IMG/VR virus record: IMGVR_UViG_2526164633_000039
Strand: one strand, 5' to 3'
Length of the DNA: 22,209 nt
Origin: a virus
Taxonomy: Duplodnaviria; Heunggongvirae; Uroviricota; Caudoviricetes
In this document: one piece after another, positions 1,307 to 14,230 of the stretch
Layout: every line of letters begins with the position of its first letter
How positions within the stretch are numbered: position 1 is the stretch's first letter
The notes under the pieces: model-generated
What the model was told of the DNA's origin: nothing
Database searches by the model: none
Seen by the model: the letters and a program-made list of their open reading frames with translations, nothing else
Translations under genes and position numbers: made by a program

Positions 1307-3778
1307 TTAAAAATCAGCCTGACTCGGGAGCAGTTTTTGCCAGATGGCTGAAACGTATTTCGCCTGGTAACGTGCATCGTTCAGAGCGTTATGGCGTTCA
1401 CCTTCGAATGGAATAGTCGTTCTTGCGTCGAAATCCATCACCAGTCCCAGAGCAACCATCGTTCTTACATCGCGATCATTGGTGTAACGCCACGGGCAGG
1501 GGATCCCCTGCCGTTCATATGAACGGCGTAAAATCACGTTGTCGAAAGTTGCACCGTTACCCCAGACCTGAACAAAAAATTCACCGGAGTTTTCGTCGAT
1601 AAATTCCCGCAATTGTAACAGTGCATCATCTAACGGGATTTCATCGGTCATAATGGCAGATTGCGCTTCGCGTGATTGCTTAAGCCACCATTTAATGGTG
1701 TCCCGATCAATGACTCCGCCAGCAGTTTCCAGATCAATAGTCTTACTAAATTCCGGTCCCATATCTCCGGTTTGCGGATCGAAAAATATTGCACCTATTG
1801 AGATAATCGGGGCATCAGGATTTTTTCCCATGGTTTCAAGGTCGATCATTAGATGGTCACACGTCCTGCTGGTGGATGTGATAACGTGATGACCGTTCAC
1901 CGTAATTAAGGGATCTGCCGTCTCGCCAGTTTCACTATCGCTGGCGTGATCCTGAGCGCTACCAGCATTCTCCTTGTGTGGATGTTCAGCGCCTTCCATT
2001 TCCTCCGGATCATTTTCCTGAACTTCAACCTGATTCTCTTCATCGAATGTTTCCTGGTATGTTGCGTCACCCATCACCGCGCCACAATCATGGCAGTTGC
2101 CACCACCGCTTTGACCGCAGGCGGTGCAGACTTTTTCCGGTTCCTGTTGCGCTACTGGCTCAGGTTGTTTCGTTTCTGGCTCGTTTTGTTGCGTATTTGG
2201 GCTGTTTTGTTCCGCTTTCTGGTCGTTCTGTTCCGATTCTTGCTGGTTCTGGTTTACAGAATCGCGGGTTTCCATCCCCTTTACCCATTTCGGATCATTC
2301 GGGTCGCTAATCCCTGCAACAAATTCTCCGCGAGAGGCAGCAAGCAACTTATCGGCGTCAGGCTGGCTGATATTGGCTGCCTGCATAATTTTGTTTACTT
2401 CGTCAGCGGTAACTTTTACCGGCTCTGGTTGTGCGGTCGTGTCAGATGCACCAGTATTTTGTTGTGAACCTGAGTATGTACTGTTTTTGCGGGCGAAATA
2501 TTCTTCTTTCGTGATTTCAGTAGCCCCGGCAGCCAGTGCCTTATCCAGACCAGAAAGTTTGTTTGCGCGACCGTATTTTTCGCCATCCTTGTCGGTGAAG
2601 AGGAAGTAGAACGGCCCCTCACGCTCTACAGATGGTTCGACTTCCACTTTGCATTCGGTTTTTTCGTTGTCCGGAATTGCCGTTTCCACTGCATCAGTTT
2701 CTGGTACTGACGACGAGAGAGTATCAGTTGCGCTCTGATTTGTTCCTTCATCTTCAAACACGCCCTTTGTAGTCAGGTATTCAGTAATGTATTTGTTCAG
2801 TGCCACAGGGTCTTTGTGAATGTCGATCGGACGTTCACGGACAAGGCCAAAAATAGTCTGGCGGTCGTAGCGAAGGGCATCAGGCTGTTTGCGCATTGAT
2901 GTCGAGATACGCTTCCAGTCTTCGCGGTCGTTGTCGATAACTTCATTTTTTGCCCAGCGATGGATGCTGCCGTCAATGTTTCCGGCATCCACATCACCAG
3001 GCCAGAGAGCGTAGGCCAGTTCGTCATCCAGTGTTTTCCATGTCTGCTTGTATTCGCGATGAATGGCAGCAATGACCAGGCTGATTTTTCCTGTTGAATT
3101 TTCAGTGTGCTGTTGATTGACTCTGGCGCGGGCGAGATCAACAACAGACGTGTATTTTCCGGTTTCCTTGCGTTCACCTTCGCGACGTTTTTTCCAGATG
3201 CGCATCTCTGCCTGAATTTCGGGCCATTTGGCACCAGGCTTACATTTATGCTTAACCCACCCGATGGCATGCAGCTTAAGCTCCGGATACATGGCGTTAA
3301 CTTCTGGCATTTTCATCAACGCTTCAACGATATGTCCGTCGAATGTTGCCATGTCTTCCTGCAACAATTCCTGTGCGCTAATAACCATATCAACGGTGAT
3401 GTTTTCACATGTGTCGAACTTAACCATGACAGCGTTCTGTACTTCAGGGGCCAGCTTGTCAAAAGTGACGTTCATCGGATCGGATTCAGTCTCAACCGGG
3501 ACAAAGGAAGCAGACTCCTCATCCCAGCGGTTTTCCTGCATATATTCAGCATCCCAGGAATCGAGGGCAGGGCGGGGTATGCCGGGTTTATCCTCACAGA
3601 CAATAAATTTATAAGCGCAGTCCTGAGCTGCAGGGAATTGCTCCAGAAATTGCCAATGAAATTTTGCGCGTGCGCGACGCTCATCACCAGCTTCAATGGC
3701 AGTGGCCACCGCAACAGCGCTATCTTCTTTTATGGCCTGTTCATCAGGAATAGCAGCGCAAATAAAGACTTTACTCAT
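1307..3778 (-). CDS. Large phage exonuclease (823 aa) with a C-terminal DnaQ-like DEDDh 3'-5' exonuclease domain, a Cys4 cluster and an acidic low-complexity linker
   Basis: ATG at 3776-3778 with GAGGT about 9 nt upstream. C-terminus shows [12 protein letters not shown] and HNALNDARY motifs typical of DEDDh exonucleases. [16 protein letters not shown] suggests a zinc ribbon. Sits between int and the dicB operon, as in EHEC-type lambdoid prophages. Confidence 0.65.
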
Positions 3779-3870
3779 TTTGTTTTACCTCATTACAGAT
3801 TTAAGGGTGAACAAATCCCTGCCATTGCTGGCATATAAGAATGAAACCGGATATTTATTACGGAACTGTT

Positions 3871-4247: not shown

Positions 4248-4427
4248 TATCGCGTCCTCAACAATGAATTTTGTGATGCGATGCCTGGTGCCTCCAGGTG
4301 ACGTTAACCAGTTAACAATTAACGCCGGATACAGAGAATCCACCCATAACACTGTTTTTGGTTTTAACTGTTCCGCGTGCGCTCAGCCGCATTCACCACA
4401 TCACAAAATTCACTTTAAAAAGGGCGG

Positions 4428-4485
4428 CAGAGCAGTCACGGAGTAAAACTGATACCGCCAAACGTCACCAGAAAATTGATAACAG
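4428..4485 (-). ncRNA. dicF: DicF small regulatory RNA (ftsZ-targeting) with intrinsic terminator
   Basis: Reverse complement of 4433-4485 reads TTTCTGGTGACGTTTGGCGGTATCAGTTTTACTCCGTGACTGCTCTGCCGCCC followed by a T-run, matching the DicF sequence as I recall it. GGCGG...CCGCC forms the terminator stem. Confidence 0.65.
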
Positions 4486-7723: not shown

Positions 7724-8131
7724 ATGGCAAAAGTATTTACACAGGAAGAGCGGGAAAAAATTAAAGGACAGGTGGTGGAACTCGTGCGCCAGAGCGGTCG
7801 TGAGACGTTACGGCAACTGGAAGCTAAAACAGGTGCGACAAGATATCTGATGAGCGTTCTTGCCAGAGAGCTGGTTGCCAGTGGTGATGTATATCACTCT
7901 GGCTATGGGGTGTTCCCGTCAGAACGGGCTCGTAAGGACTGGCAAAACGCCCGCAAAAAACTCTCGAGGGCAAAGGTGAAGAAACCTGTTGTGGTTGATC
8001 CGGGCCTTATCTGGACATTACCCGACGGAGAAATACGCCGCTACGACAGGCGTATGAACATAATCTGTCGCGAGTGCCGGAAGAGCGAAGTTATGCAGCG
8101 TGTATTGGCGTTCTATCAGGGATATGCCTAG
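7724..8131 (+). CDS. Hypothetical 135-aa protein, possible winged-helix DNA-binding N-terminus
   Basis: Strong AGGAGGA RBS before the ATG at 7724. No confident family assignment. Confidence 0.5.
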   Translation: MAKVFTQEEREKIKGQVVELVRQSGRETLRQLEAKTGATRYLMSVLARELVASGDVYHSGYGVFPSERARKDWQNARKKLSRAKVKKPVVVDPGLIWTLPDGEIRRYDRRMNIICRECRKSEVMQRVLAFYQGYA

Positions 8132-8177
8132 AATTGTCACAGGTAATGAAATTAAAGAGTATTGGTTCGGATATGAA

Positions 8178-8206
8178 TTGACATTTTCGCGGCACAGAGC
8201 TAAAAA
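8178..8206 (+). promoter_or_regulatory. Candidate sigma70 promoter (TTGACA, 17-bp spacer, TAAAAA) directed toward the SIR2-like gene
   Basis: TTGACA at 8178-8183, 17-nt spacer, TAAAAA(T) at 8201-8207, about 290 bp upstream of the 8500 start codon inside an AT-rich non-coding stretch. Confidence 0.3.
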
Positions 8207-8499
8207 TAGCCTACTTGTTGGTTTTGTGTGAAAAGCAGACATTTTGAGGCTCAGGATTTGTTATCAAATAAGACCAATACTTATCTATATTAATACACAT
8301 TAAATACTGTGCAATACATTATTGCATTTTATTAGATAAGCGATATTTAGGGAAAAGAAAAGTCATAGAAAACAGGCCGCTATTTGTTGTTGGATTTTAT
8401 AGGCTATATCTAGATTATCTTGCCACTGCGGTCTCTGTTTACCTAACAGCTTGGGCTTCTTTGCATGCAAGTTTGTAATAACAAGAGTAATCAAACGGA

Positions 8500-9531
8500 A
8501 TGTCTATTAATCCTAAACTTAAGCGTATCGCGCGACGCTATCCAGCGTTATTCCAATATGAGTCCCCCTATATGGCAAGAAAATTAATAATATTCGGCAA
8601 CGGTCTCGGTATGGCTTTAGATCCTGCTCACTTCTCCTTAGACAGAGCGTTGGAAGAAATTTGGCATCGCCCCAATTTTTTAAAAGATATCCACAAGCAA
8701 CTTATCGAGCGTTGTCTTCAGCGGCAAGGTCCACCAGAAGGAGAACATGAGTTGGATACCCTTCACCAGGCTGTCACATATTGTAAAGCTCTTGCTCAAA
8801 TTGGAGAGGGGAACGTGCATTGGCTTACTGAAGATGGACTAAACTTCCCCAAAATTACCGCCACTTATATTCACAAAGTTGCAACCAGGTTGCATAATTA
8901 CGATAAAGGTTTGCCACAAAGATTCGAAAATGCGCTTGTGGAGTTTGTAAAGAACACACACTCACATATCGCGACATTAAACTATGACAAATTATTATAC
9001 AATTCATTCATAGATAATGATATATTCAACGGGTATGATGGGGTTTTAGTTGATGGGATGCTAAGCCACGGATTTTCCTCTGCAGCGCTCGAACGGAAAT
9101 ACAATCGTAGGTTTGGTTATTATTTGCACTTGCATGGTTCACCACTATTTATTAATCAGCATGAAAATGTTTTAAAACTTTCACGCTCACAACTTACTCT
9201 TGACATAGATGAACCTAGTGAGCATATAGTGTTAACTCATATAAAAAGAAAACCGTCAGTTATAGCAGCATCTAATGTTCTTTCTACGTACTGGGATTAT
9301 TTGCAGTTTGCATTATTTGAATCAGAAGAAATAATATTGTTTGGTTACTCTGGTCTCGATATTCACCTTAACCTGCTTATTCGACCTTACCTAACCTCTA
9401 AGCCTTTAAGAGTAATTGAGTGGAGCGGTGCTGGTGAACAAAACGCTCGTGAGATATATTGGAAAAACCAGTTGAGACGGGAAGTTACTGTAATTAGGTT
9501 GGATAACATCACTGATTTTATTGATTGGTAG
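8500..9531 (+). CDS. SIR2-like (sirtuin-fold, SIR2_2/DUF4020-type) protein, 343 aa; candidate NAD-consuming anti-phage defence effector
   Basis: Motifs read directly from the translation: glycine-rich IIFGNGLGMA (aa 30-39), IATLNYD (Asn161), YLHLHGS (His210/His212), ILFGYSGLDIHL (aa 279-290). These match the order and spacing of defence-associated SIR2 domains. Coding GC is far lower than the flanking prophage (about 32% in sampled 60-nt stretches). Confidence 0.65.
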   Translation: MSINPKLKRIARRYPALFQYESPYMARKLIIFGNGLGMALDPAHFSLDRALEEIWHRPNFLKDIHKQLIERCLQRQGPPEGEHELDTLHQAVTYCKALAQIGEGNVHWLTEDGLNFPKITATYIHKVATRLHNYDKGLPQRFENALVEFVKNTHSHIATLNYDKLLYNSFIDNDIFNGYDGVLVDGMLSHGFSSAALERKYNRRFGYYLHLHGSPLFINQHENVLKLSRSQLTLDIDEPSEHIVLTHIKRKPSVIAASNVLSTYWDYLQFALFESEEIILFGYSGLDIHLNLLIRPYLTSKPLRVIEWSGAGEQNAREIYWKNQLRREVTVIRLDNITDFIDW

Positions 9532-9601
9532 CGCAATGCGAAGTTAAAGAGGCAGCCTCATATTTATCAGAGCTGGTGTACGTCCAATACAGGAGGTTAT
9601 C

Positions 9602-9691
9602 GTGCTGGTTCTCAAATGCGCGCTGGCTATTGCGGCTGTAGTGGCAATTTATTGTCTTGCTATTGTTCTTATGGATCGCCTTTCTGATTGA
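9602..9691 (+). CDS. Small hydrophobic peptide (29 aa, GTG start), possible membrane-active type I toxin-like peptide
   Basis: Perfect AGGAGG at 9591-9596, 5 nt before the GTG at 9602. Translation (M)LVLKCALAIAAVVAIYCLAIVLMDRLSD is one predicted TM helix plus a short charged tail. Not in the ORF track (<60 aa). Confidence 0.4.
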   Translation: MLVLKCALAIAAVVAIYCLAIVLMDRLSD

Positions 9692-9902
9692 TTTTATATT
9701 GGCGAGGTGACGGGAGTTAAGTAGAATTGCTGCGGGTGCTTGAGGCTGTCTGCCTCGGGCATGCCACCGTAAGGCAGACAGAGAAAAGCCCCAGTTAACA
9801 TTACGCGTCCTGCAAGACGCTTAACATTAATCTGAGGCCCAATCTATGCTTCACAAACGTAGGTTAGCCTCTTACGCGCCGAAAGGCAAGGAGAAGCAGG
9901 CT

Positions 9903-10058
9903 ATGAAGCAGCAAAAGGCGATGTTAATCGCCCTGATCGTCATCTGTTTAACCGTCATAGTGACGGCACTGGTAACGAGGAAAGACCTCTGCGAGGTACG
10001 AATCCGAACCGGCCAGACGGAGGTCGCTGTCTTCACAGCTTACGAACCTGAGGAGTAA
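9903..10058 (+). CDS. hokD: Hok/Gef-family type I toxin (51 aa), HokD/RelF-like
   Basis: MKQQKAMLIALIVICLTVIVTALVTRKDLCEVRIRTGQTEVAVFTAYEPEE has the Hok TM segment and conserved Cys. An in-frame upstream extension from 9846 is mok-like. A perfect 10-bp leader hairpin lies at about 9745-9780. Confidence 0.8.
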   Translation: MKQQKAMLIALIVICLTVIVTALVTRKDLCEVRIRTGQTEVAVFTAYEPEE

Positions 10059-10126
10059 GAGACCAGGCGGGGGAGAAATCCCTCGCCACCGCTGATGTGT
10101 CAGGCATCCTCAACGCACCCGCACTT

Positions 10127-11611: not shown

Positions 11612-11641
11612 GTAAGCGGCTCGCCAGAACCGTATTGATAT

Positions 11642-13213
11642 TTACTGAGAGGTCAGATCAACTTTCCAGGGCAACAGATCGCGTACCCGGTTTGCCGGCC
11701 AATCCTGGATATGCTCAATGACGTAACGCAGCCATTTTTCTGGTTCCACATTGTTCAGACGGCATGTGCCGATCAGCGAGTACAACACCGCCGCATGTTC
11801 GCCACCGCTGTCGGAACCCGCGAACAGCCAGTTTTTCCGGCCTACGGCCACTCCCCGTAAGGCGTTCTCTGCGATGTTGTTGTCGATTTCCACCCAGCCA
11901 TTACTGCAGTACACGTTCAGGCCATCCCACTGTTTCAGCAGGTATGCGAACGCTTTTGCCGTATCCGAGTGACGCGACAGTGTTTTCATCTGAGTCTGTA
12001 TCCAGTCATACAGTGACTGCATCAGTGGCGCAGCTCTGGCTTTTCTTGCCGCCAGACGCTGTTCTGCTGTACATCCCCGGACTTCTGCCTCTATGGCATA
12101 CAGTTCACCGATACGCTGCAGGGCTTCCGTGGTGATGTCGGTGGGCACTCTTGCATGCACATCGTGGATTTTTCTCCGGGCATGAGCCATACACGCGGCT
12201 TCCGTTATTCTGCCGGATTCGTATAACACCCGGTAACCACCGTAAGCATCGGCCTGAAGCACACCGCTGTAACCGGCCAGATGATTTTGTGGATGGATAC
12301 CTTTCCGGTCCGGTGAGTACGCGAACCAGACCGCCGGGGGCATTTCCGAACCGGCGTTACGGTCATCACGGACGTAGACCCACAGCCGGGCGGTCCGGGT
12401 TTTACCGCTGCCCGGCTCCTGGACCGGGACGGGGATATCATCAGCATGGACTTTACCGGGCATCAGCACATACTGGCGCAGGACGTCATACAGCGGCTCC
12501 AGCAGTTCAGCAACGGCACCTGTCCAGCGCCCCAGCGTGGCGCGGCTCAGCTCCACGCCCTGGCGACGGTATATTTCTGACTGGCGGTATAACGGCAGAT
12601 GGTCTGCATATTTCCCGGTAACAACATGGGCCAGAAGCCCCGCTCCGGCATAACTGCGTGCAATGGGTTTTGAAGGTACTGTTGCCTGCACGATATGGTC
12701 GCACCGACAACAGGCCAGTTTCGGACGTTGTGTTTCGATAACCTTAAAGGCGCTGCTGATAAGCTCCAGTTGCTCTGACACATCACACCCCAGAGGACTG
12801 AGGTCACCACCACAGGCCGGGCAGCATTCCTCTTCCGGCCGGATGACCCGGGTTTCACGGGGAAGTGAGGCCGGTAACGGTTTACGGGCTGAAGACTGGC
12901 GCAGGGCGGATGGCAGTACCGGGTCATATTGCTCACCCAGCGTTTCCGCCATTTCTTCCTGAAGTGCGCTGATTCGCTCCTGTGCTTCCTGTATCTGCCG
13001 TTCGGTTTTAGCGCGAAGTTTTTCTGAGCTTTTACCGAACTGCATGCGCTGCAGTTTCGCAACCAGCGCCTTCAGCCGGTTGATTTCGGAAGCATAAGCC
13101 GCCACCCGCTGTGAGAGCAGGCGGTTGTATTTCGCCATCTGGCGGATGGTGTCCTGTTGCGTCTGCAACAGTGCCCGCAGGCGGGCATTCTCATGAGCAA
13201 GTGAGGTGTCCAT
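11642..13213 (-). CDS. tnpC: IS66-family transposase TnpC (523 aa)
   Basis: Intact ORF with N-terminal coiled-coil/leucine-zipper-like region, a Cys-rich zinc-finger region (CPACGG...CCRCDH) and conserved IS66 transposase core. Confidence 0.9.
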
Positions 13214-13232
13214 ATCCTCACTTTACAACGGG

Positions 13233-13580
13233 TTATATGCGGATGCCAGCGCGTTCCGTTCGTTTCGGGTGCTTCCAGTCGATGCCTTCGAGAAGCATGG
13301 ACAACTGAGCCGGAGTAAGGTGAACCTTTCCATCGCGGGTGACCGGCCAGACGAAGCGGCCCCGCTCCAGGCGTTTGGTGAAGAGGCACAGTCCGTCACT
13401 GTCAGCCCACAGCACTTTTATCTGGTCACCCCGGCGTCCGCGGAAGATGAACAGATGCCCGGAGAACGGGTCATCCTTCAGGACGTTCTGAACTTTTGAG
13501 GCCAGGCCGTTAAAGCCATTTCGCATATCGGTGATACCGGCAACCAGCCAGATACGCGAACCGGCAGGGAGAGATATCAT
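13233..13580 (-). CDS. tnpB: IS66-family accessory protein TnpB (Orf2, 115 aa)
   Basis: MISLPAGSRIWLVAGITDMRNGFNGLASKVQ... is typical IS66 Orf2. Start overlaps the tnpA stop. Confidence 0.9.
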   Translation of the reverse strand: MISLPAGSRIWLVAGITDMRNGFNGLASKVQNVLKDDPFSGHLFIFRGRRGDQIKVLWADSDGLCLFTKRLERGRFVWPVTRDGKVHLTPAQLSMLLEGIDWKHPKRTERAGIRI

Positions 13581-14230
13581 CAGTGGCTGCTCCCTTTCAT
13601 TTCGCGGATAAGTGTCTGTAATAACGCCGGTGTCAGTTCACCTTTCAGCCTGAGAGTTCCGGCCGGCAGAACCAGCTCGCAGCACAGACTGTCTGGCAGT
13701 GTATTTATCTGTTCAGGTATCTGCACTGGTGCCGGGATTTTATTATCCGGCTCCGGAGTTAACGTCACGGGAAGTAGCGATGTTTCATGTTCGCCGGGCG
13801 GTTGCAGGCCACCGTTACGCCAGAGATGCCGCCAGTTAAAGAGCAGGTTATCGTTAATTCCATTCTCTCGAGCTATTTGTGCGACACAGGCACCGGGTAA
13901 AAGAGTTTGCTGAACCAGTCTCCATTTAAACTCCGGTGAAAATCGGTTCCGGCGGGGTTTCTCTGCTTTCACAGGCTGAGTCACGGTCGGGGCTGAAGGG
14001 TATCGCCCCGGGAAAAGAGCCCGGGCCAGTTGCCCGCAGGAATATTCACCGGAAAGAGGCCAGTCAGTGAATACCTGGTGAAATCGCCTCACCAGAGAAA
14101 AAATGGCGGTTTTGCTGACACCAGTCTGCGCAGAAATGCGCGGGTACGACAGTGACTCGTCAAATCTCAGCTGTAGCACACGCAGGATCAATTCTGGATT
14201 ATCTGCCAGTACCGCTTTTCGTGCATTCAT
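13580..14230 (-). CDS. tnpA: IS66-family accessory protein TnpA (Orf1, 216 aa as drawn; a shorter internal start is possible)
   Basis: First ORF of the element, with an HTH-like N-terminus. ATG at 14228-14230. Confidence 0.75.
   Translation of the reverse strand: MNARKAVLADNPELILRVLQLRFDESLSYPRISAQTGVSKTAIFSLVRRFHQVFTDWPLSGEYSCGQLARALFPGRYPSAPTVTQPVKAEKPRRNRFSPEFKWRLVQQTLLPGACVAQIARENGINDNLLFNWRHLWRNGGLQPPGEHETSLLPVTLTPEPDNKIPAPVQIPEQINTLPDSLCCELVLPAGTLRLKGELTPALLQTLIREMKGSSH

Follow-up and report, generated by a model that had tools for sequence, protein, structure and literature searches.

A conserved short open reading frame at the edge of a prophage cargo hotspot probably encodes a single-pass membrane peptide

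Studies of small open reading frames (ORFs) in Escherichia coli have revealed non-toxic inner-membrane proteins such as YohP (27 amino acids), KdpF (29 amino acids), MgtS (31 amino acids) and AcrZ (49 amino acids). Very short products are also encoded by type I toxin genes, among them TisB and ZorO (29 amino acids each), DinQ (27 amino acids), ShoB (26 amino acids) and IbsC (19 amino acids); the defining features of these loci are a cognate small RNA (sRNA), antisense or divergent, and a structured, translationally inert primary transcript. In phages, a 'moron' is a promoter-ORF-terminator unit located between backbone genes and expressed from the prophage. Here we describe a 29-codon ORF in the IMG/VR virus record IMGVR_UViG_2526164633_000039, a 22,209-nucleotide stretch of Caudoviricetes DNA that we refer to, at its full length, as the window. 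The ORF (9602..9691, + strand) lies between a SIR2-like gene and a hok/sok locus. Comparison with related elements suggests that it is a genuine lambdoid-prophage backbone gene for a single-pass membrane peptide, separable from both the SIR2 gene and hok, a reading to which we give a probability of roughly 0.68.

The ORF starts with GTG at 9602, extends for 29 codons and ends with TGA; its product is MLVLKCALAIAAVVAIYCLAIVLMDRLSD. The Shine-Dalgarno sequence AGGAGG (9591..9596, + strand) is separated from the start codon by the 5-nucleotide spacer TTATC. An earlier note on this DNA had pointed to this arrangement and to the hydrophobic ORF, and had placed it 70 nucleotides after the SIR2-like stop; both descriptions hold, the SIR2-like ORF ending at 9531. 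The N-terminus of the peptide is short and contains a single lysine; a hydrophobic helix of 19 residues and an acidic tail, DRLSD, follow, and the grand average of hydropathy (GRAVY) of the peptide is 1.90. Residues 6-24 form a predicted single transmembrane helix and also give the top 19-residue Kyte-Doolittle window, with a value of 2.84 that exceeds those of all 286 stop-to-stop segments of 25-45 amino acids in the window (maximum 2.45). One transmembrane helix with a short charged tail, as the note had proposed, is plausible for the ORF if translated. A lipoprotein reading was rejected by eye, there being no lipobox ahead of either cysteine, and a small-xxx-small motif (A7/A11/A15) was rejected since valine substitutions occur and the motif is not conserved. 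Within one sequence, the combination of ribosome-binding site and start codon is no more than chance, with AGGAGG followed at 4-9 nucleotides by a start observed twice in the window compared to 2.19 expected, whereas the comparative evidence is well beyond chance.

Copies of the ORF were recovered from IMG/VR with a pair of DNA patterns, neither of which fixes more than one end of the ORF. A full ungapped frame with start, stop and Shine-Dalgarno sequence was found in 145 of the resulting 159 loci (33 unique nucleotide alleles). All 15 prophage and phage loci picked by BLAST alone were likewise intact, at 83-95% identity, and display AGGAGG, AGGAGA or AGGGGG, a 5-nucleotide spacer and GTG. Copies on Shigella virulence plasmids are intact at 81.7% nucleotide identity, and the allele of E. 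coli N1420, at 80%, keeps the frame while the stop is lost. The Shine-Dalgarno variants seen are AGGAGA, GGGAGG, AGGGGG and AGAAGA; the spacing never changes, and all 9 sequences of one alignment (A1) have the GGAG core unaltered. One lineage lacks a single codon, the deletion being in frame, and starts with ATG. A frameshift occurs in one copy only, whose Shine-Dalgarno sequence (AGAAAG, found only there) and -10 box are both degraded.

The distribution of substitutions is specific to the frame. Variable sites fall at first, second and third codon positions in numbers of 11, 9 and 21, and the variants comprise 23 of 66 possible synonymous and 22 of 186 possible non-synonymous changes, an omega-like ratio of 0.34; the same ratio is 0.88 and 1.01 in the other two frames. 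Pairwise ratios of non-synonymous to synonymous substitution rates (dN/dS; Nei-Gojobori, NG86) for divergent pairs range from 0.10 to 0.55 in frame and are ~1 or more in most off-frame comparisons. Between SCU-109 and the virulence plasmid copy, for example, there are 13 synonymous and 7 non-synonymous differences. Replacements are almost all hydrophobic for hydrophobic, with swaps among Ala, Val, Ile, Leu, Met and Thr. Among 76 unique sequences there is no gap column in the ORF, compared to 69 in the 150-nucleotide conserved non-coding block just upstream. At the level of the alignments, these data demonstrate purifying selection specific to the frame of the ORF. In the N1420 allele 12 of the 29 residues are changed, all of them hydrophobic, suggesting that constraint acts mainly on the hydrophobic character of the helix. 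A 96-residue Cys-rich frame that overlaps the ORF (phage Tritos, locus 2349-2639) was rejected as a chance frame: insertions and deletions break it, and no more than 9 of 76 alleles have it open; it illustrates what an unconstrained frame looks like at this locus.

The gene resides in a conserved backbone block (9549..9706, + strand). Homology with other prophages begins at 9549, where the SIR2 cassette abuts, and ends at 9703-9706 in loci without hok; the left end is at 9549 in 119 of 164 loci and the right end at 9703 or 9706 in 14. The block, taken as the stretch 9549-9733, is present at >=80% coverage in ~1,620 of 5,426 complete E. coli genomes; a full match to the interval 9400-9900 exists in just 30. 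The block was also matched in E. albertii, E. ruysiae and Shigella, as well as in the lambdoid phages Tritos, mEp460, Evi and HannyBb, all four of which are cultured, and copies of the ORF with ~72% amino-acid identity are located on 135 virulence plasmids (pINV) of Shigella and enteroinvasive E. coli (EIEC). Lack of conservation in related islands, which the earlier note had named as grounds for abandoning the peptide, is not what we find: the peptide is conserved in related elements. The ORF is missing from both the Rac and the Qin prophage of K-12; Qin has relBE immediately next to hokD, and K-12 also lacks mok and sok. Since K-12 lacks the ORF, the gene has never been sampled by the ribosome-profiling and tagging surveys of small proteins made in that strain.

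The contexts on the two sides of the block differ in kind. In the 143 loci where the block is complete, 48 unrelated contexts can be told apart in the 600 bp upstream, with SIR2 in 4 loci; other upstream neighbours are a restriction endonuclease, QueH, AbiH, a RelA/SpoT-domain protein, an acetyltransferase and host genes at the edge of a prophage remnant. The 600 bp downstream fall into just two, hok (114 loci) and a TehB/DUF1971 cassette (10 loci). Judged by these comparisons, the conservation of the ORF and its independence from its neighbours are established. To the right of the replication and Ren-like (DUF977) genes comes a hypervariable cargo and defence hotspot, and the gene is the first conserved element beyond it, usually placed just upstream of a complete hok/sok locus. 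The hotspot itself lies between the DUF977/Ren-like gene and the small-ORF/hok block (8131-9549 in the window), and holds SIR2 here and relBE in K-12 Qin; elsewhere its cargo is a restriction endonuclease, QueH, AbiH, a RelA/SpoT-domain protein, or an acetyltransferase or methyltransferase. As the fixed right edge of a site carrying SIR2, restriction enzymes, AbiH, RelA/SpoT-domain genes, QueH and relBE, the small gene offers a landmark for the mining of prophage defence genes.

A candidate -10 box for the small gene, CATATT (9559..9564, + strand), is present in 37 of 39 unique 5' regions. In most loci the backbone reaches ~150 nucleotides further upstream than here and contains TTGAAT-17-CATATT. 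A TTGNNN box lies exactly 17 nucleotides upstream of CATATT in 32 of the 39 regions, with 18 different spacer sequences between them; conserved hexamers over so many different spacers are the pattern expected of a real promoter, and we infer that the gene has its own. Most prophages would accordingly have a weak sigma-70 promoter of this form with a leader of ~30 nucleotides. In the window, the matching -35 position (9536-9541, ATGCGA) is SIR2-cassette DNA and a poor match. No terminator is predicted in 9531-9602, so read-through from SIR2 is the likely source of messenger RNA here; the -35 box having been replaced by the cassette, the peptide would be made from read-through SIR2 or early-right-operon transcripts by way of the strong Shine-Dalgarno sequence. 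The peptide would then enter the inner membrane as a single-pass helix and exert its effect there; both its translation and its insertion are probable.

Two rearranged loci bear on the leader region. In E. coli N1420 (locus ~3530-3860) the junction between the backbone and a second SIR2 allele (88.8% identical) lies 100 nucleotides further upstream, and the -35 box of the small ORF is kept. In E. coli B strains (BLR(DE3), locus 2204-2613) a deletion joins a truncated DUF977 gene to the leader of the small ORF. The DUF977 frame now ends inside the small ORF in another frame, and the promoter region is lost while the ORF is intact. In BL21(DE3)/BLR(DE3) the small ORF occupies complement(1573618..1573707) of NZ_CP020368.1.

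The earlier note described the peptide as unannotated, which is correct for RefSeq and the Prokaryotic Genome Annotation Pipeline (PGAP), where annotation of the ORF is absent in every record looked at. It is incorrect for GenBank deposits, in which the identical peptide appears as 'hypothetical protein' or 'membrane protein' in E. albertii, REL606 and BL21(DE3), and Prodigal calls the Shigella plasmid copy (CP037924_00134). A protein search with a 40-residue stop-loss variant of the peptide returned only its own cluster. A full-text literature search for the peptide sequence found no paper containing it, and searches on hokD with small protein and on lambdoid, hotspot and hok found nothing relevant. 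Antisense ORFs called by RAST and in phage HannyBb were rejected as they are not conserved and are interrupted in the window.

Several observations weigh against a genuine gene. Searches of Pfam, PHROGs, NCBIfam and PADLOC with the peptide gave no family match; the sole hit, F0F1 subunit c, was far under its cut-off and meaningless. The pattern-drawn IMG/VR sample inflates the counts of intact copies, a bias that the BLAST-selected set mitigates, and the copies are closely related and recombining, such that counts do not represent independent events. In N1420 an 11-nucleotide deletion removes the stop and extends the product to 35 amino acids. About half of the matching genomes retain just the last 8-14 codons, with cargo junctions inside the ORF, and the gene must on this account be dispensable. 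The promoter motif TTGAAT-17-CATATT has 8 of 12 consensus matches and was not called by a promoter scanner. In addition, the table of transcription starts from differential RNA sequencing of S. flexneri M90T (PMC7132871), which covers one growth condition, lists no start at the predicted small-gene promoter; the nearest same-strand starts are two icsP starts and an orphan start ~320 nucleotides upstream, and neither the small-gene nor the hok promoter predicted on pWR100 has a start in that table (PMC7132871).

In its overall character the peptide adds to a familiar class, and we see no sign of an unusual mechanism. It resembles YohP, KdpF, MgtS and AcrZ in having fewer than 50 residues, a single transmembrane segment and a strong Shine-Dalgarno sequence, in having been missed by standard annotation, and in conserving mainly hydrophobic character; it differs in being borne by prophages and plasmids, in its absence from K-12 and in having no known partner protein. 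With phage morons it shares a compact layout, comprising one short ORF and its own candidate promoter, as well as being dispensable, shuffled independently and situated at an accessory and defence hotspot. Unlike morons, its G+C content is that of the backbone rather than foreign, it has no terminator of its own in the hok context, its promoter is only putative, and it forms the conserved flank of the hotspot instead of a variable insert. Our guess as to its role, which we favour, is a dispensable accessory, moron-type membrane peptide that alters host membrane function, with a dedicated toxin as the main alternative. It is unlikely, in our estimate, that the peptide is a functional membrane effector contributing to phage exclusion by the prophage at the hotspot, be it as a new family of tiny toxin or abortive-infection peptide or as a modulator of Hok or a host membrane protein. 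If translated, the ORF would represent a widespread small membrane protein omitted by RefSeq, occurring in ~30% of complete E. coli genomes, lambdoid phages, B strains (BL21, REL606) and the Shigella virulence plasmid.

The alternative that survives best, itself an unlikely one, holds that the gene is a type I small membrane toxin beside hok, which would be silenced by an antisense RNA and would depolarise the membrane when expressed. The peptide has 29 very hydrophobic residues, within the size class of TisB and ZorO and under the 60 amino acids usual for such toxins with a predicted transmembrane helix, and the gene adjoins a bona fide type I locus; likeness to TisB, ZorO, DinQ, ShoB and IbsC extends to length, extreme hydrophobicity, one predicted helix and location in the accessory genome. 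The start is a weak GTG in most alleles, and the orphan start ~320 nucleotides upstream on the Shigella plasmid would yield a long leader. Furthermore, a promoter-like site on the minus strand, TTAACT-18-TAAAAT (9691..9720, - strand; 9 of 12 consensus matches and a consensus match only), points across the ORF and is where the silencing RNA would start. This site however belongs to the hok-specific part of the DNA: it is absent from the 10 loci in which hok is replaced and altered on the Shigella plasmid, though the ORF persists intact in both. The antisense RNA that the earlier note suggested looking for across 9590-9700 consequently lacks a conserved promoter, this hok-specific site being the sole candidate, and the antisense strand has no fold signal.

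At the RNA level, neither strand folds better than shuffled sequence (z = -0.27 for the plus and +0.61 for the minus strand), and the covariation term of the alignment consensus structure, -1.1 kcal/mol, is equalled by 124 of 500 shuffles; a structured-RNA reading was rejected on these grounds. Rfam contains no family over the region, its only match being a sub-threshold one of the sok model on the minus strand (E = 0.048). As far as sequence analysis goes, which expression data could overturn, no antisense or adjacent antitoxin sRNA is conserved with the gene. Nor was a structured, translationally inert messenger RNA found: the predicted leader is ~30 nucleotides, and the strong, optimally spaced Shine-Dalgarno sequence is locally paired in the alignment fold, in a helix whose covariation does not go beyond shuffles. 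The tail is acidic, not basic. The gene therefore differs from the short toxin loci in the antitoxin sRNA and structured transcript, neither of which was found, and the libraries searched contain no toxin, of the Hok family or otherwise, that is similar in sequence. The minus-strand site overlaps the hok promoter, and AGTTAAG in the spacer of that promoter does not vary among the 8 aligned sequences from hok contexts, an unusual constancy for a spacer.

Slightly less credible is the proposal that there is no gene at all, the block being kept as DNA or RNA (for regulation upstream of the hok promoter, as a cargo terminator or as a recombination 'linker' at a module boundary) and the open frame being incidental. 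The block does coincide exactly with a mosaic boundary, junctions often fall within the ORF, and synonymous sites are also fairly conserved between lineages with strongly differing leaders. The ORF contains a weak terminator-like hairpin (9626-9645), RefSeq leaves it without annotation, and the Shine-Dalgarno-plus-start motif is by itself at chance level. Against this stand the frame-specific pattern of substitution and the lack of insertions and deletions in an ORF that adjoins a non-coding block with many. The Shine-Dalgarno sequence, start and stop are kept at 80-83% nucleotide identity, both a GTG-to-ATG change and an in-frame deletion occur, and the ORF persists where the hok promoter does not. 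Terminator-like matches are at the level of shuffled sequence (2 compared to 0.9 expected), no structure or covariation signal is seen, and the overlapping 96-residue frame is closed in all but 9 of 76 alleles.

The hok locus begins immediately downstream. The hok (mok) promoter, TTGGCG-17-TAGAAT (9699..9727, + strand), starts 8 nucleotides past the stop of the small ORF, and the hok mRNA leader and sok region (9734..9908, + strand; Rfam RF01794, 116.2 bits, E = 3.2e-26) starts 42 nucleotides past it. The mok and hok frames occupy 9846..10058 (+ strand), with hok proper at 9903..10058 (51 amino acids), and 9889-10060 is 100% nucleotide-identical to hokD of K-12 Qin. A distance of about 200 bp to the hok leader, as given in the earlier note, is correct only for the hok ATG at 9903 (~210 nucleotides) and fails for the -35 box (8 nucleotides) and the Rfam match (42 nucleotides). 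With Hok/Gef type I toxins (PF01848, with mok and Sok RNA) the peptide has in common that it is small, hydrophobic and single-helix, and that its gene, immediately 5' of a complete hok/sok, shares the prophage region of that locus and moves along with it. It is nevertheless unrelated in sequence: Pfam gave no match to PF01848 at E up to 1, and BLASTP against the window's own Hok gave no alignment at E up to 100. Its 29 residues compare with 51 in Hok, and it lacks the periplasmic Cys-containing domain, just as the gene lacks a mok-like overlapping frame, a long folded leader and a conserved antisense RNA. By these searches the peptide is not a member of the Hok/Gef family.

That the gene is a hok/sok accessory, in which the peptide, or transcription and translation entering the hok promoter 8 nucleotides downstream, tunes hok/sok expression or the action of Hok, is less probable again. 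In its favour, 114 of 124 loci have hok next, the ORF and hok have no predicted terminator between them, and transcripts of the small gene would run into hok as 5'-extended RNAs. In the 10 loci without hok, by contrast, homology ends 12-15 nucleotides past the stop of the ORF, which is intact in all 10 and represented by at least three alleles, and it is intact on pINV also. Hok-like places in E. coli genomes number ~8,970 compared to ~1,617 full copies of the ORF block, such that most hok-like loci, those on plasmids and K-12 hokD included, are without the ORF, and many hok loci keep merely its last 8-14 codons. The suggestion in the earlier note of an accessory peptide of the hok locus hence stands as regards common linkage but not dependence: hok does not need the ORF, nor the ORF hok.

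On the virulence plasmid of Shigella and EIEC the ORF is retained, starting with ATG behind AGGAGG, and so is a promoter-like site, TTGAGT-17-CATATT. On pWR100 of S. flexneri M90T (locus 2895-3348), the intact diverged ORF, at complement(90908..90997) of the plasmid, is located ~260 nucleotides upstream of the protease gene icsP (sopA), and the hok promoter and ~90 nucleotides of decayed hok leader are all that remain before icsP. The well-studied upstream region of icsP is hence in part a remnant of a prophage hok locus. In N1420, the 11-nucleotide deletion also takes sequence just 5' of the hok -35 box.

The upstream neighbour, a SIR2_2/DUF4917 cargo gene (8500..9531, + strand), has a longest ORF of 343 amino acids, with PGAP and most homologues starting at 8572 (319 amino acids). 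It matches Pfam SIR2_2 at E = 1e-5, its PADLOC SIR2 matches are weak, and the family is only weakly similar to catalogued SIR2 defence proteins; the peptide itself has no PADLOC match. The proteins form a compact stand-alone family of ~319 amino acids with 60-82% identity in Pantoea, Serratia, Citrobacter, Klebsiella, Aeromonas and Vibrio, and many Gammaproteobacteria carry a stand-alone homologue. Homologues of 73-82% identity in Klebsiella, Serratia and Aeromonas are chromosomal genes that stand alone, with nothing similar to the ORF downstream. The G+C content of the SIR2 segment is 0.30-0.46, against ~0.5 in the backbone, marking the segment as foreign cargo; the small ORF has a backbone-like composition. 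In E. coli the gene was found in 46 genomes, always at this site and always with the ORF downstream. That the small peptide serves the SIR2-like defence protein as a membrane partner or effector, one of the suggestions in the earlier note, we reject as very improbable: the ORF does lie 70 nucleotides downstream on the same strand with no terminator between, and all 46 genomes do have it, but this co-occurrence follows from the shared insertion site, and the reading is already contradicted by a distribution over ~1,620 genomes and 48 upstream contexts, by close homologues without the ORF, by the difference in G+C content and by a cassette junction that took away the ORF's -35 box. For the SIR2 gene of this window, a tempting but wrong two-gene model is thereby removed.

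The window as a whole is a lambdoid prophage, in which the DUF977/Ren-like gene (7724-8131) is followed by the SIR2_2 gene, the complete hok/sok, rem and a DUF968 gene. The sRNA DicF (4422-4473), a cluster of three tRNA genes (17239-17485) and STnc100 (17564-17754) are typical of Qin- and Stx-type lambdoid prophages. Two copies of an IS66-family element, 94-97% identical, are located at 11612-14230 and 20602-22209, each with a 523-amino-acid DDE_Tnp_IS66 transposase and accessory ORFs. The first of these interrupts the DUF968 gene, which ends prematurely at 11615.

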